Source: a virus
Taxonomy: Duplodnaviria; Heunggongvirae; Uroviricota; Caudoviricetes
Virus record (IMG/VR): IMGVR_UViG_3300049215_000227
Location: 103,998 to 167,997 of that record
Reading direction: 5' to 3' (one strand)
DNA length: 64,000 nt
Notes under the pieces: model-generated
What the model was told of the DNA's origin: nothing
The model's database searches: none
The model's input: the letters and a program-made list of their open reading frames with translations, nothing else
Program-made: the position numbers and the translations under genes
Shown: positions 48,468-59,391 of the stretch, piece after piece
Numbering within the stretch: the first letter of the stretch is position 1
Layout: each line of letters opens with the position of its first letter

Positions 48468-48540
48468 TGGGGAGTAGGCAAGCTGGTAATCCGCTCGGCT
48501 GTTAACCGAGACACCGCAGGTTCGAATCCTGCCTCCCCAG
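48468..48540 (+). tRNA. tRNA-Asn(GTT)-like (weak D-stem)
   Basis: Acceptor TGGGGAG/CTCCCCA, G73 + CCA. Anticodon stem CTCGG/CCGAG, loop CTGTTAA. T-arm GCAGG-TTCGAAT-CCTGC. Confidence 0.4.
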
Positions 48541-48563
48541 CCAAAAAGAAAGGAAATAAGTTT

Positions 48564-48636
48564 GCCGTGATGGCGTAGAGGGTCTGCGCGCTCGCCTGAA
48601 GAGCAAGAGGTCTCGGTTCGATCCCGAGTCACGGCA
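48564..48636 (+). tRNA. tRNA-Phe(GAA)
   Basis: Acceptor GCCGTGA/TCACGGC, A73 + CCA. D-stem GCGT/GCGC. Anticodon loop CTGAAGA. T-arm CTCGG-TTCGATC-CCGAG. Confidence 0.5.
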
Positions 48637-48644
48637 CCATGACA

Positions 48645-48719
48645 TGCATCTCAGTTCTACCGGGTGGAGAAGCTGGTCTGTTAAACCAGTAGCGGTGGGT
48701 TCGAGTCCCACGGGATGCG
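48645..48719 (+). tRNA. tRNA-Asn(GTT)
   Basis: Acceptor GCATCTC/GGGATGC, G73 + CCA. D-stem TTCT/AGAA. Anticodon stem CTGGT/ACCAG, loop CTGTTAA. T-arm GTGGG-TTCGAGT-CCCAC. Confidence 0.55.
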
Positions 48720-48726
48720 CCAGATT

Positions 48727-49023
48727 GAGACGAGCGAGGATATCGCGAGCCTTCCCAGGTTCGAGGAACTTCGCGGCTGCAAGAGCGACGTAGTGGATAA
48801 CGACCACCCACCGTGAGGTGAGCGACGGCTACAGAGACGAGTCGGCGAAAGCCGGGTGAAACGAGCGACAGCGTACGCGCAGCAACTGGAAATAGGTAAG
48901 CAGTGCTCCTGCTCGGAGGGCTTACGGGTACCAGGCTTGAGGCCAGAAGTAATTCTGGTCCTAGAGGGATGATGTCCTCCGCCGCACACACGGCGAAGAC
49001 AGAACCGCGGGTATTGCTCGTCT
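48727..49023 (+). ncRNA. rnpB-like: candidate RNase P RNA-like ribozyme (reduced type-A-like, about 297 nt)
   Basis: Terminal helix GAGACGAGC / GCUCGUCUC. GAGGAUAUCGCGAGCC resembles CR-I (GAGGAAAGUCCGGGCUCC), with compensating changes in an ACAGAACCGCGGGUAUU element resembling CR-V (ACAGAACCCGGCUUA). The 3' third runs parallel to E. coli M1 P15-P18: AAAUAGG...GCUUGAG-CCAG...CUGG-CCUAGA-UGAUG..UCC...ACAGAACC. The P3 and S-domain regions appear shortened. Confidence 0.4.
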
Positions 49024-49035
49024 CAAACAAATTTT

Positions 49036-49120
49036 GGAGAGTGAACTGATACGGGTTATCAGAGCCGCCTTGAAAGCGGATGGCTCCGCAAGGAGTAGGG
49101 TTCGAGTCCTTCGCTCTCCG
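49036..49120 (+). tRNA. tRNA-Ser(TGA), class II
   Basis: Acceptor GGAGAGT/GCTCTCC, G73 + CCA. Anticodon loop CTTGAAA. Long variable arm. T-loop TTCGAGT. Confidence 0.55.
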
Positions 49121-49225
49121 CCAAGTTGGGAGAAAGTTCCGGTTCGACTCCGGAGATAAGCCCACCGCCAGGTAACGCTGTTGGGTGGCCTAGTGTAACG
49201 GTTGCACGTCTCCCGTGCATTTTAT

Positions 49226-49313
49226 GGAAGGTTAACCGATACGGGTTATCGGCACTGCCTCGAAAGCAGATGGCTCCTGAATAGGGAGTGGGATTCGAGT
49301 TCTCAGCCTTCCG
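49226..49313 (+). tRNA. tRNA-Ser(CGA), class II
   Basis: Acceptor GGAAGGT/GCCTTCC, G73 + CCA. Anticodon loop CTCGAAA. Long variable arm. T-arm TGGGA-TTCGAGT-TCTCA. Homologous to 49036..49120. Confidence 0.55.
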
Positions 49314-49442
49314 CCAGGATTTATATGAGTGGCAATCAGTACAATAGTTTGCATGATCTTTTAAGTATGTTAGTAGCGTTGAATATCGTTGATAGGCAAG
49401 ACTTTGAATTAATGATAGACAAAGCTTATGATCAAGTTAAAT

Positions 49443-49530
49443 AGAGAGTGAACAGGTGAGGTCACCTGGCATGCCTGGAAAGCATTGCGCTCCTCGAAAG
49501 GGGAGTTCGTTTCGAGTACGACGCTCTCTG
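49443..49530 (+). tRNA. tRNA-Ser(GGA), class II
   Basis: Acceptor AGAGAGT/GCTCTCT, G73 + CCA. D-stem CAGG/CCTG. Anticodon loop CTGGAAA. Variable-arm hairpin CTCC..GGAG. Confidence 0.55.
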
Positions 49531-49538
49531 CCAGGTTT

Positions 49539-49745
49539 ATGAGTATGAATGAGTTGCTAGAAAAATACAAGTGCATGAACGAAGCATGCAAGGTAGAGTG
49601 GAGTGGAACTGTGGGTCCACCAAACTTCTGTCCTAAGTGCAAAGGCATGTACTGCGAGTGGCTGACGTTCAAGGACTGGGATTTTGACGGTGAAAGCTGG
49701 GTGAAGCGTGGAACATCATTGGTACCCGTGGCAGGTGATAACTGA
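49539..49745 (+). CDS. small zinc-ribbon protein
   Basis: ATG just past the tRNA. CMNEAC...CPKCKGMYC. Confidence 0.35.
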   Translation: MSMNELLEKYKCMNEACKVEWSGTVGPPNFCPKCKGMYCEWLTFKDWDFDGESWVKRGTSLVPVAGDN

Positions 49746-49810
49746 CCAAACCTGCTCGCGATGTGGAGCTAAGAGGTTCGGTAAGTATCCAGAAGAATGC
49801 AGTGGGATTT

Positions 49811-50140
49811 ATGAAGAAGAAAACAAAGATGTTCAGCGTGACCGCAGCGGATTGCCGCTGGGACGTCTTCCGCGGAAGCGGAGACGGAGGTCAGAAAAAG
49901 CAAAAGACGTCAAGCGGTGTCAGGTGCGTCCACGAGCCAAGCGGAGCCGAGGGAAAAGCAACCGACAGCAGAGAGCAAAGTAAGAACCGCAGGACAGCTT
50001 TCGAGAGGATGGTTAAGACACCAGAATTTCAGAGCTGGTTGAAGTTAAAGATTGAAGCTGGTCTTGGCAACGTAGAGATTGAAGAGACCACAGACAAAGG
50101 AAATAAGATTACCCGCAAGCTGGGTATGGAAGAAGTTTAA
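49811..50140 (+). CDS. ArfB-like peptidyl-tRNA hydrolase (class I release-factor GGQ domain)
   Basis: RGSGDGGQKKQKTSSGVRCVH matches GSGPGGQxVNKxSSAVRL of ArfB/RF, followed by a basic C-terminal tail as in ArfB. Confidence 0.5.
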   Translation: MKKKTKMFSVTAADCRWDVFRGSGDGGQKKQKTSSGVRCVHEPSGAEGKATDSREQSKNRRTAFERMVKTPEFQSWLKLKIEAGLGNVEIEETTDKGNKITRKLGMEEV

Positions 50141-58171: not shown

Positions 58172-58180
58172 CCAAAGTTT

Positions 58181-58252
58181 GGTGCTATCGTATAATGGCT
58201 ATTATGCCCCTCTGTCTAAGGGGTGATAGGAGTTCGATTCTCCTTAGCACCG
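58181..58252 (+). tRNA. tRNA-Asp(GTC)
   Basis: Acceptor GGTGCTA/TAGCACC, G73 + CCA. Anticodon stem CCCCT/AGGGG, loop CTGTCTA. T-arm AGGAG-TTCGATT-CTCCT. Confidence 0.55.
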
Positions 58253-58274
58253 CCAAAGTTTGAAGGAAGGAATT

Positions 58275-58566
58275 ATGGTGAAGTTTTAACAGTAGGTATC
58301 GGATAGGCGTCATCAACGAGTTCAGAGATTCGTTTGCCTTTGTTGACTACAAAGACTACGGAGAGCTGAAGGTTTGGGACGCATGTTGGACCCAAGGGTT
58401 GGAAAAAACGGTGTGCGGATCGATACATGTTTTTCTCAACTTTCGAAAGGTCGGCGAGTTTAAGAAGAAGGAAGAAGCTCGCCAAGCGATACTGAAGCTC
58501 CTAGAAGATGCACCAAACGGCTTCTTCGAGGAGAATAAGAATGTTCTTCTAAAAGATTTGTGCTAG
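58275..58566 (+). CDS. small protein requiring a +1 shift at AAG-UUU-UAA-C (programmed frameshift or extra-T error)
   Basis: Strong RBS GAAGGAAGG 5 nt before ATG 58275. Frame 0 stops at codon 5 (TAA) inside a TTTT run. The +1 frame continues as an 88-codon protein-like ORF with no start of its own, ending at TAG 58564-66 inside the next tRNA. Confidence 0.3.
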
Positions 58567-58632
58567 CTTCGTATAGTGGTATTACTCCTGTTTCGTAATC
58601 AGGAAACCAGAGTTCAATTCTCTGAGCTAGCT
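58562..58632 (+). tRNA. tRNA-Thr(CGT)
   Basis: Acceptor GCTAGCT/AGCTAGC, T73 + CCA. D-arm GTAT-AGTGGTA-TTAC. Anticodon loop TTCGTAA. T-arm CAGAG-TTCAATT-CTCTG. Confidence 0.5.
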
Positions 58633-58636
58633 CCAT

Positions 58637-58708
58637 GCCGGTATAGTATAGTGGCTATTACTCTGTGTTGGTATCACAGAAACCCAAGTTCGATTCTTGG
58701 TATCGGCT
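58637..58708 (+). tRNA. tRNA-Thr(GGT)
   Basis: Acceptor GCCGGTA/TATCGGC, T73 + CCA. Anticodon stem CTGTG/CACAG, loop TTGGTAT. T-arm CCAAG-TTCGATT-CTTGG. Confidence 0.55.
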
Positions 58709-58721
58709 CCAAAATTTAGTT

Positions 58722-58792
58722 GCCTGGTTAGTTAAGTGGTATAACCCCTGTCTTGTAAACAGGAATCGTGAGTTCGATTCTCACACTAGGCT
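58722..58792 (+). tRNA. tRNA-Thr(TGT)
   Basis: Acceptor GCCTGGT/ACTAGGC, T73 + CCA. D-arm GTTA-AGTGGTA-TAAC. Anticodon stem CCTGT/ACAGG, loop CTTGTAA. T-arm GTGAG-TTCGATT-CTCAC. Confidence 0.55.
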
Positions 58793-58796
58793 CCAT

Positions 58797-58869
58797 CGCT
58801 ACGTGGTCCGAGGGGTTAGGCAGCACTCTCATAAGGTGCTTAATGAAGGTTCGAGTCCTTCCGTAGCGA
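58797..58869 (+). tRNA. tRNA-Met(CAT) (elongator-type or Ile2/lysidine type)
   Basis: Acceptor CGCTACG/CGTAGCG with C1-G72 paired (not initiator-like), A73 + CCA. Anticodon stem GCACT/GGTGC, loop CTCATAA. T-arm GAAGG-TTCGAGT-CCTTC. Confidence 0.5.
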
Positions 58870-59038
58870 CCAAAAGTTAAGGTTAGTATGTGCATTCATT
58901 GCGATGCTTTAGATAGCACGGACTACTTGATAAGCTTACTTAATAAGTTGCTAGAGACGGAGTTTCCGCCAGCAGCAGACTTCAAGTACGCTAACGAGAA
59001 GTTCAAGGATGAGAGCATGTTAAACAAACCTATAAAGT

Positions 59039-59111
59039 TGCCCGGTTCGTTCAATGGATAGGATATGACGCTACGAACGTCAGGACGGGGGTTCGATTCC
59101 CTCACTGGGTA
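59039..59111 (+). tRNA. tRNA-Arg(ACG)
   Basis: Acceptor GCCCGGT/ACTGGGT, A73 + CCA. D-arm GTTC-AATGGATA-GGAT. Anticodon stem TGACG/CGTCA, loop CTACGAA. T-arm GGGGG-TTCGATT-CCCTC. Confidence 0.5.
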
Positions 59112-59119
59112 CCATGTTT

Positions 59120-59191
59120 GTCCTTGTGGCCGATTGGAAAAGGCCTCTGCCTGCAAAGCAGATGTTCTCAGTTCGATTCTGAGCAAGGACT
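59120..59191 (+). tRNA. tRNA-Cys(GCA)
   Basis: Acceptor GTCCTTG/CAAGGAC, T73 + CCA. D-stem GGCC/GGCC. Anticodon stem TCTGC/GCAGA, loop CTGCAAA. T-arm CTCAG-TTCGATT-CTGAG. Confidence 0.5.
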
Positions 59192-59324
59192 CCAAGTCTG
59201 ACCGACATAAGATGGTCGCTTGCAGAAGGGGGAGAGACGGCACTCCGGACCCAGTATTCGAAGCTGGTAGTCGCGGTAAGCAGAGCGCAAGGGAAAGCGC
59301 TGTACTCCTCCACCATTTTTACAA

Positions 59325-59391
59325 GGGGGTTCTTCTGGGAAGAACTTGGCCTCCAAAACCGAGAAGAAGTGTTCGATTCACTTAACCCCCG
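59325..59391 (+). tRNA. tRNA-Trp(CCA), compact 67-nt form with minimal D-arm
   Basis: Perfect acceptor GGGGGTT/AACCCCC, G73 + CCA. D-arm only TCT-GGGA-AGA. Anticodon loop CTCCAAA closed by a C.A mismatch. T-arm AAGTG-TTCGATT-CACTT. Confidence 0.4.

Follow-up and report, generated by a model that had tools for sequence, protein, structure and literature searches.

A class A RNase P RNA gene inside the first tRNA array of a predicted large tailed phage

The stretch of DNA analysed here (the window) comprises 64,000 nucleotides (nt) of a virus record classified in the Caudoviricetes (IMG/VR record IMGVR_UViG_3300049215_000227, positions 103,998 to 167,997), and is numbered from its first letter. 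As shown in Table 1, it contains 36 tRNA genes, all on the plus strand and grouped in six arrays. A large tRNA cluster had been proposed by a sequence-only reading of this DNA, which claimed about 40 genes, and both the cluster and the same six arrays were recovered. That reading missed what lies in a 313-bp interval of the first array, bounded by the end of tRNA-Asn at 48722 and the start of tRNA-Ser(TGA) at 49036, namely a gene for RNase P RNA. The gene lies on the same strand as its flanking tRNAs, with helix P1 beginning 3 nt after the upstream tRNA and ending 10 nt before the next one.

The match of the gene to the Rfam model of bacterial class A RNase P RNA exceeded the cut-off of 100 bits (153.2 bits, E 2e-47) and spanned model positions 1–367, the whole model. 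Mapping of the Rfam structure onto the 304 nt placed helices P1–P3, P5, P7–P12 and P15–P18, and the P4 and P6 pairings were added by reading the sequence. P6 is a pseudoknot between J5/7 and the P17 loop (48783–48786 with 48911–48914, GAGC/GCUC in the window). GNRA loops on P9 and P18 and the J5/15 adenines were present, as in class A RNase P RNA. P12 was a 4-bp stub with a GAAA cap, and an extra hairpin was found at 48980–48995. P13 and P14 were absent, two nt standing in for 43 model positions. All defining features of class A that were tested are present except P13/P14, and this loss was taken as the mark of a variant and no bar to class A membership because it is also seen in some cellular lineages.

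Homologues were searched for with a pattern of 19 bases across the P13/P14 deletion junction, and one IMG/VR contig (L002), on which RNase P RNA again lies between tRNA-Asn and tRNA-Ser(TGA), was reached via a neighbouring protein. A match inside a coding region (L001) in the initial pattern scan was rejected as chance. The pattern detected two further viral contigs (147 kb and 63 kb) and 22 metagenome contigs, and the RNA was present in 19 of the 20 contigs scanned. Among 185,579 species-representative genomes there was one match, the 147-kb viral contig again, within a “Cytophagales” metagenome-assembled genome (MAG). At least 21 distinct RNase P RNAs, including that of the window, were collected (290–408 nt), the junction pattern being invariant in 21/21 sequences. 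The other 20 were 62–81% identical to the window copy, and the related RNAs scored 116–185 bits against RF00010. All of them were flanked by same-strand tRNAs, with the recurrent order Asn-(Phe-Asn)-RNase P RNA-Ser(TGA)-Tyr/Leu-Leu: Asn-Phe-Asn ahead of the RNA was kept in L010, L024 and L026, and Ser(TGA) followed it in L002, L007, L010, L025 and L026.

Covariation was scored over the 21 sequences with the Rfam structure plus P4 and P6. Overall, 88.1% of cells were paired, against 70.5% in column shuffles (0/500 reached the observed value) and 31–41% when the 3′ partners were slid by 1–3 columns. Changes on both sides occurred in 56 of 89 pairs (340 cells). Pairing was 98.8% in P4, 97.6% in P6, 100% in P15, 100% in P16 and 91.7% in P18, and the lower scores of P1 and P3 were attributed to alignment slippage in length-variable stems. 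Six of the eight P4 pairs changed on both sides (e.g. A-U to C-G at 67/359), one P6 pair occurred as C-G, A-U and U-A, and pairing of P15 and P16 was likewise accompanied by covariation. P4 pairs 67/359 and 68/358 switched among A-U/G-C, C-G/G-C and C-G/U-G with pairing always kept; in the window copy, C-G and U-G take the place of A-U and G-C. Across the lineage P12 ranged from the 4-bp stub to ~120 nt.

When the sequences were aligned to E. coli M1 RNA, A65, A66, the bulged U69, C70, A248, A249, G292-G293-U294 and ACAG.A at 347–352 were invariant; the block that reads ACAGAAC in the window took the form ACAG(A/G)A(C/T) across the homologues. J11/12 (ACAGAGACGA) and J12/13 (GGGUGAAA) were also invariant; as established by structural work, the tRNA elbow docks on these regions. 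The L15 G-G-U is taken by us to pair with the 3′ CCA of the pre-tRNA, as in class A RNase P generally. The RNase P RNA gene is almost certainly genuine and under selection.

To gauge its breadth in viruses, IMG/VR was scanned with a generic class A P4 motif, which matched 67 stretches; 19 of them lay within 1.5 kb of at least three tRNAs on the same strand, and many of these 19 came from contigs of 100–463 kb. An Rfam scan of 16 such stretches revealed class A RNase P RNA in 15 (108–277 bits, 238–367 nt), inside arrays of up to 33 tRNAs and, in 11 loci, with the nearest tRNA 0–7 nt away. RNase P RNA in viral tRNA arrays thus reaches beyond the window lineage. The window lineage is a reduced form without P13/P14, and near-canonical class A RNAs occur on twelve or more other viral contigs of large or huge size, notably, in arrays of 14–33 genes, on L043, L053, L061, L066, L071, L074, L091, L094 and L095. 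Transfer-messenger RNA (tmRNA) was also seen at L094 and L066, and a GOLLD RNA among the tRNAs of L079 (a 385-kb contig). The share of tRNAs with an encoded CCA varied from 4/33 to 14/14 among these other arrays, and a crude test of encoded CCA against L15 GGU across the other viral lineages was inconsistent and is not relied on.

The tRNA genes themselves were then compared for what surrounds them. An encoded 3′ CCA, claimed before for almost every gene, was found in all of the 36 curated genes. T stood at −1 in 27/36 (T making up 23% of the window) and G at +1 in 27/36. In 20 related loci with 113 tRNAs, CCA was encoded in 113/113 and T stood at −1 in 92/113. U-1, G+1 and 3′ RCCA are substrate determinants of bacterial RNase P. 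The phage tRNAs carry all three, and the RNase P RNA retains the matching bases.

Contrary to the claim, AAGTTT(A) does not come after nearly all genes: CCA-AAGTTT occurred exactly five times and CCA-AGTTT twice (7/36), and T at −1 is a stronger regularity than this trailer. A relaxed trailer, A0-2-R-R-T-T-(T/A), did follow 17/36 genes, against 0.98% of random window positions (binomial ~5e-25), while 13 tRNA junctions of just 1–6 nt were free of any motif. Averaged over the 113 related tRNAs, trailer positions 1–5 read A, A/G, T, T, T and were poor in C; since the same profile recurs in these relatives, the signal was considered real as a conserved pattern without a fixed word. A shared processing or termination signal had been suggested. 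Its processing half is plausible in the form of a C-poor A-R-U-U-U trailer that also gives U at −1 to the next tRNA, but its termination half is unsupported, as terminator-like sites numbered 14 against 11.8 expected and the arrays run on past the motif.

The spacer might instead be functionless, a relic of tandem duplication of a tRNA plus its spacer or a weak transcription stop. We consider this unlikely. The exact word at just 7/36 junctions and the many motif-free junctions of 1–2 nt would fit it. However, trailers are alike although the tRNA bodies span 20 isotypes, the C-poor profile recurs in relatives whose spacers are not alignable, the enrichment over background is strong, and no excess of terminator-like sites was seen. 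A promoter scan was uninformative (18 promoter-like sites against 10.9±3.5 expected). An extended −10-like sequence, TGGT-A/G-N-A-N-T, was observed at 51825–51845, 52680–52692 and 55608–55621 (tggtgatataat, tggtatact and tggtagaat), shortly upstream of ORFs (open reading frames) or arrays, and these repeats may be phage promoters.

From these observations we conclude, with reasonable confidence, that the region probably represents the tRNA module of a tailed phage, both large and uncultured, in which homing-type HNH endonuclease genes and small ORFs lie between the six arrays and the first array includes a complete class A RNase P RNA that would mature the phage pre-tRNAs. This RNA is likely to be the catalytic subunit by which phage tRNAs are matured. 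As a wider proposal, tailed phages with large tRNA arrays may encode their own RNase P ribozyme and, if it is active, mature their tRNAs independently of host rnpB; we hold this to be evenly balanced.

The predicted course of events is as follows. Each array would be transcribed as a polycistronic precursor, with the RNase P RNA included. RNase P would cut the 5′ end of every tRNA, where the leaders carry U at −1, and the encoded CCA would pair with the invariant L15 GGU. The cut at tRNA-Ser(TGA), 10 nt downstream, would also free the 3′ end of the ribozyme, and 3′ processing of tRNA-Asn, 3 nt upstream, its 5′ end; because its gene has tRNAs on either side, the RNase P RNA would be cut out of the precursor by the very enzyme it forms. 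Host 3′ exonucleases, which stall at C, might trim the short C-poor A-R-U-U-U trailers back to CCA, and longer spacers would probably be cut first by an RNase E-type enzyme. RNase E prefers RN|WUU, which A-R|U-U-U fits. The released RNA would assemble with host RnpA, proposed as the partner because no rnpA was found in the window. Extra ribozyme copies would raise or secure RNase P capacity while ~36 phage tRNAs are expressed and host transcription is possibly shut off, and this added capacity would not depend on transcription of host rnpB during infection.

Several points weigh against this interpretation. The 64-kb window has no gene for capsid, portal or terminase, and phage identity rests on auxiliary genes and on the IMG/VR classification of the relatives. 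RnpA (Pfam PF00825) was absent from the ~100 ORFs of the window, and an RnpA hidden Markov model built from three sequences reached no better than E 0.13 when the window and the related loci were searched in all six frames of translation (64 kb of the phage genome and the flanks of related loci were covered). Loss of P13/P14 together with the deviation at P4 positions 67 and 68, which are usually conserved, could lower activity or make it more protein-dependent, although the helix is preserved. The RNase E and exonuclease steps are modelled on consensus knowledge. Finally, host RNase P RNA is generally stable, which makes the benefit to the phage less certain. When ORFs lying up to 3 kb from the RNase P RNA were clustered at the 21 loci, no protein co-occurred in all, the largest clusters being probably spurious ORFs over RNA genes.

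These points bear on the rival view that the RNA is non-catalytic, either a decoy or regulator that soaks up host RnpA or pre-tRNAs or a structured element for processing or stability of the array transcript. The reduced specificity domain, the deviation of P4 67 and 68 in about half of the lineage and the lack of a partner protein encoded nearby could be explained in this way. Yet the U69 bulge, A248/A249, L15 GGU and the J11/12 and J12/13 regions are invariant, and P4 and P6 are kept through compensatory changes. The 36 tRNAs of the phage need RNase P, so inhibition would harm the phage, and bacteria of the candidate phyla radiation (CPR) function with RNase P RNAs without P13/P14 (PMC8172020). 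A non-catalytic role is accordingly judged improbable, and a catalytic one is preferred.

The phage origin of the window is supported by its PHROG content and its viral relatives. PHROG and Pfam searches identified ribonucleotide reductase, ATP-dependent DNA ligase, RtcB, NAMPT, PRPP synthase, ThyX, RNase H, Macro, NADAR, PTH2, peptide deformylase, an RF-1-domain protein and, within the cluster, three HNH endonucleases. Two further PHROG matches to a ClpP/S49-like “head maturation protease” were ambiguous. On one strand lay 84 of the 105 window ORFs, and many small ORFs belonged to no known family; no ribosomal or other housekeeping genes were found among the window proteins. The best tblastn matches of these proteins were in jumbo and Vi1-like phages (42–57% identity). 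The same large-phage families recurred in the regions flanking the related RNase P RNAs, and the related contigs were IMG/VR viral contigs of 17–147 kb. No nucleotide match to the window, its cluster included, or to two RNase P RNAs was obtained among 50,697 GenBank phage records.

Could the contigs be bacterial, a tRNA-array island or a streamlined uncultured genome with the RNA as housekeeping rnpB? One homologous contig was deposited as “MAG: Cytophagales bacterium”, virion structural genes were not seen in the window, and CPR RNase P RNAs likewise lack P13/P14. This reading is nevertheless very unlikely, given that the same 146.7-kb MAG contig is also an IMG/VR viral contig, that large-phage PHROG families (RtcB, NAMPT, PRPP synthase, endonuclease VII/HNH, deformylase, ThyX) occur in the window and in the flanks of its relatives, and that the junction pattern occurs in no other of the species genomes; the strand bias, the many small ORFs, the lack of ribosomal or housekeeping genes and the jumbo and Vi1-like closest proteins also oppose it. 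The contig concerned (LNEN01000305.1, identical to IMGVR_UViG_2623620416_000002; L030/L006, 146,658 bp), deposited in “MAG: Cytophagales bacterium Ga0077538” and as a viral contig, probably belongs to a phage and ended up in a MAG through binning, which may hint at a Bacteroidota host. The idea that the RNA is recently captured, decaying host DNA (a pseudogene, or an attachment-site remnant of integration into rnpB) has in its favour that helices common to most class A RNAs are missing, but is effectively refuted by covariation, as homologues down to 62% identity keep the structure through 340 double-sided changes, the gene is full length from P1 to P1, the deletion junction and array position are common to the homologues, and integration at an attachment site would leave just a short 3′ piece that matches the host gene exactly. 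The window RNA is a member of a phage-borne lineage selected for the RNase P fold.

GenBank phage records that matched E. coli M1 RNA were rejected, as they look like bacterial contamination. Among them, Microcystis phage MaAM05 (MW495066.1, L032, 111323–119518) has an unannotated rnpB-like stretch amid fabI, engB, mtgA and glyS, which looks like bacterial sequence in a phage record.

Automated calling with ARAGORN and Rfam reproduced all isotypes and anticodons that had been called by hand, including the four Ser isoacceptors. Default ARAGORN gave 29 plus-strand tRNAs (48468 to 59194), and Rfam at its gathering score gave 27 matches, three of which (51228–51295, 52814–52888 and a partial one at 58024–58080) were absent from the ARAGORN list. 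Seven of the 36 genes were seen only by relaxed ARAGORN or by Rfam (Ser-GGA, Arg-TCT, Arg-CCT, Ser-GCT, Glu-TTC, Trp-CCA and a poor Tyr-GTA): a 90% threshold added Arg-CCT, Ser-GCT, Glu-TTC and Trp-CCA, and 80% added Ser-GGA and a long-arm gene at 50148–50237. Arg(TCT) folds as a clean cloverleaf with anticodon UCU (Rfam 29.6 bits), Trp(CCA) scored 23.6 bits, under the Rfam cut-off, and tRNA-His has an encoded G-1 opposite C73.

A near-complete decoding set, as had been proposed, was upheld by codon counting (53–59 of 61 sense codons). The 34 distinct anticodons suffice for 53/61 codons if wobble is strict, or 88.4% of the 13,203 codons in window ORFs; with four-way reading by U34 they read 59/61 (99.0%), leaving only CGG and AUA. 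Outside the cluster, ARAGORN predicted tRNA-Met(CAT) at 21167–21245 and a 93-nt tRNA-Ile(TAT) at 30397–30489, neither of which was confirmed by Rfam at its gathering score; the latter, if real, would decode AUA.

Table 1. Features of the tRNA cluster and the embedded RNase P RNA gene, with positions in the window
Feature	Position	Strand	Evidence or remarks
Array 1a: tRNA-Asn(GTT), tRNA-Phe(GAA), tRNA-Asn(GTT)	48468–48543, 48564–48639, 48646–48722	+	ARAGORN; Rfam 47–59 bits
Bacterial class A RNase P RNA gene, 304 nt	48726–49029	+	Rfam RF00010, 153.2 bits
P4 5′ strand with bulged U (E. coli U69 equivalent)	48768–48776	+	Pairs with 49005–49012
GGGTGAAACGAGCGACAGCG: J12/13 joined straight to P11/P10 3′ strand, site of P13/P14 deletion	48854–48873	+	
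L15 G-G-U (E. coli G292 G293 U294)	48927–48929	+	CGGGT invariant in 21/21 sequences
P4 3′ strand	49005–49012	+	Conserved ACAGAAC just before
tRNA-Ser(TGA)	49036–49123	+	ARAGORN; 5′ end 10 nt past 3′ end of P1 helix of RNase P RNA
Conserved tRNA-like element with permuted arm order, 92 nt	49126–49217	+	Between Ser(TGA) and Ser(CGA)
Array 1b: tRNA-Ser(CGA), tRNA-Ser(GGA)	49226–49316, ~49443–49533	+	CGA, default ARAGORN; GGA, 80% threshold only, encoded CCA
RF-1 (GGQ) domain ORF, ArfB-like, between arrays	49763–50140	+	PF00472, E 2e-14; phrog_3122
Array 2: Tyr(GTA)-like, tRNA-Leu(TAA), tRNA-Leu(CAA)	50148–50237, 50243–50319, 50321–50397	+	Leu by ARAGORN, Rfam
HNH endonuclease ORF between arrays	50429–50860	+	phrog_2255, E 9e-34
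Array 3: tRNA-Arg(TCT), tRNA-Leu(GAG), tRNA-Arg(CCT), tRNA-Ser(GCT)	51228–51298, 51300–51376, 51382–51452, ~51458–51546	+	
HNH endonuclease ORF between arrays	51847–52206	+	Pfam PF01844, E 1e-6
Array 4: tRNA-Glu(TTC), tRNA-Glu(CTC)	52814–52891, 52897–52973	+	ARAGORN, Rfam (30.5 bits)
Array 5: tRNA-Ala(TGC), tRNA-Lys(CTT), tRNA-Lys(TTT)	55806–56076	+	ARAGORN, Rfam
HNH endonuclease ORF between arrays	56093–56635	+	Pfam HNH_5, E 3e-18
Array 6a: Gly(GCC), Gln(CTG), Gly(TCC), Gln(TTG), Leu(TAG), Pro(TGG) (57461–57538), 104-nt structured spacer, Pro(TGG) (57643–57721)	57048–57721	+	
Second permuted tRNA-like candidate (weak)	57748–57839	+	Model R1 23.6 bits, E ~3e-4, plus sequence reading
Array 6b: Ile(GAT), Val(TAC), CCA-less pseudo-tRNA (58013–58089), His(GTG), Asp(GTC)	57853–58255	+	ARAGORN, Rfam
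Array 6c: Thr(CGT), Thr(GGT), Thr(TGT), Met(CAT)	58562–58872	+	ARAGORN, Rfam
Array 6d: Arg(ACG), Cys(GCA), 130-nt structured spacer, Trp(CCA) (59325–59394)	59040–59394	+	

All tRNAs with a Leu anticodon (TAA, CAA, GAG and TAG; 50243–50397, 51300–51376, 57372–57448) were only 76–78 nt long with a 5-nt variable loop, whereas Ser and Tyr tRNAs retain long arms. The Leu tRNAs of the window and all 33 in related loci (L002–L029) share the 5-nt loop and keep a 3-bp D stem, an 11-nt D loop of Leu type and A73. A class I body on the Leu tRNAs throughout one phage lineage is unusual. The Tyr(GTA) candidate has an irregular fold, was missed by default ARAGORN and by Rfam, and received a different call at the 80% threshold; relatives have normal Tyr-GTA genes in its place. 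The element at 58013–58089 is a tRNA-like pseudogene, with no CCA, C instead of U33, a bulged acceptor stem and a partial Rfam match of 36.3 bits (58024–58080).

The 92-nt element between Ser(TGA) and Ser(CGA) folds as a four-way junction with the arm order of a circularly permuted tRNA: an outer stem, a T-like hairpin (UUCGACU loop), a long middle hairpin and a D-like hairpin with GG. Homologues occur at L017:2537–2626 and L025:771–861(−), beside the RNase P RNA in all three loci. Nine of 24 predicted pairs covary in these three sequences, and a model of the permuted arrangement (R1) scored 98–111 bits. An invariant 5-nt linker, AUAAG, lies between the T-like and middle arms and breaks T/acceptor stacking, and a CCA is found in the window copy but not in L017 or L025. 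The element gave no Rfam match, YrlA included, at E<=1, and no Ro/TROVE protein was found among the window ORFs. Its arm order resembles that of the permuted tRNA genes of Cyanidioschyzon merolae and the tRNA mimics of bacterial YrlA Y RNAs. As in those, a T arm, an acceptor-like hairpin and a D arm lie inside a terminal stem, and RtcB is encoded in the same genome; unlike them, the element has the AUAAG linker and no conserved CCA.

In the second, tentative candidate (57748–57839) a T arm, GUGGG-UUCGAAU-CCCAU, abuts a 7-bp hairpin closed by GGC and is followed by a D-like arm. Weak R1 matches were given no evidential weight, since the model also picks junctions of adjacent ordinary tRNAs. The spacer at 57539–57642 has a cloverleaf-like fold (z = −3.1), and that at 59195–59324 contains an 88-nt tRNA-like unit (~59227–59311) with a 7-bp acceptor stem, A73, CCA and a non-canonical interior. 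Neither matched Rfam, and nhmmer found no homologues of these two spacers or of 57722–57852 in the related loci examined.

Genes for tRNA repair and translation rescue lie around the cluster, namely an RtcB ligase, a calcineurin-like phosphoesterase, the RF-1/ArfB-like GGQ protein, a peptide deformylase and PTH2 (set listed at 22734–23939, 45111–45893, 49763–50140 and 60199–60702, with the PTH2 ORF among those at 28065–62751). The nearby RtcB, PTH2, RF-1-domain and deformylase genes are consistent with the earlier suggestion that the cluster may confer resistance to tRNA depletion or anticodon nucleases.

Compared with known systems, the window RNA shares with bacterial class A RNase P RNA (rnpB/M1 RNA, RF00010) the fold of P1–P12 and P15–P18, the P4/P6 pseudoknots and L15 GGU, and differs from the cellular class A genes in being phage-encoded and embedded among arrayed tRNA genes, the nearest of which are 3 nt and 10 nt away, with no rnpA nearby. 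Archaeal type A RNase P RNAs lack P13/P14/P18. The RNAs of CPR/Patescibacteria and archaeal type A resemble the phage RNA in losing P13/P14 with the catalytic domain kept; they are single-copy cellular housekeeping genes, whereas the phage lineage keeps P16, P17 and P18 and lies on viral contigs. Class A rnpB of plastids and cyanelles resides in a small dependent genome with its protein partner supplied from outside; its origin, unlike that of the phage copy, is organellar and by vertical inheritance. Many CPR RNase P RNAs have no P13, P14, P16 or P17 (PMC8172020).

Taken alone, the tRNA cluster is an ordinary example of its kind, with 36 tandem same-strand tRNAs and three HNH ORFs among them; the clusters of T4, T5, KVP40 and XacN1 are likewise tandem, split by homing endonuclease genes and near-complete in decoding. 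To our knowledge, the phage tRNA clusters described so far rely on host RNase P, and that of the window includes a ribozyme gene. XacN1 has 56 tRNAs (PMC5852040), and SegB of T4 is placed in the tRNA region (PMC13096335). The searchable full-text literature (subscription-only papers lay outside its scope) yielded no description of an RNase P RNA encoded by a phage or other virus, and the embedded ribozyme is thus a known RNA class in an apparently undescribed setting. Phage tmRNA and other large structured RNAs of huge phages such as GOLLD are likewise cellular-type, translation-related RNAs beside phage tRNA genes, but differ in sequence class and function; RNase P RNA, unlike these, genuinely works as a ribozyme with multiple turnovers.

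Among cells, RNase P RNA counts as a universal housekeeping ribozyme. Its presence in phages as a conserved, covarying family would extend the translation components of viruses (tRNAs, tmRNA, synthetases, ribosomal proteins) to tRNA maturation and, if it is active, would make it a virus-encoded multiple-turnover ribozyme. The lineage amounts to a natural set of pared-down class A ribozymes (no P13/P14, P12 from 4 bp to ~120 nt) for probing what the specificity domain needs, and the phage RNA could serve as a marker of phage contigs mis-binned in MAGs. For annotation, “gaps” in phage tRNA arrays deserve scans for structured RNAs. The finding also raises a directly testable question, whether the phage ribozyme and host RnpA form a hybrid holoenzyme.

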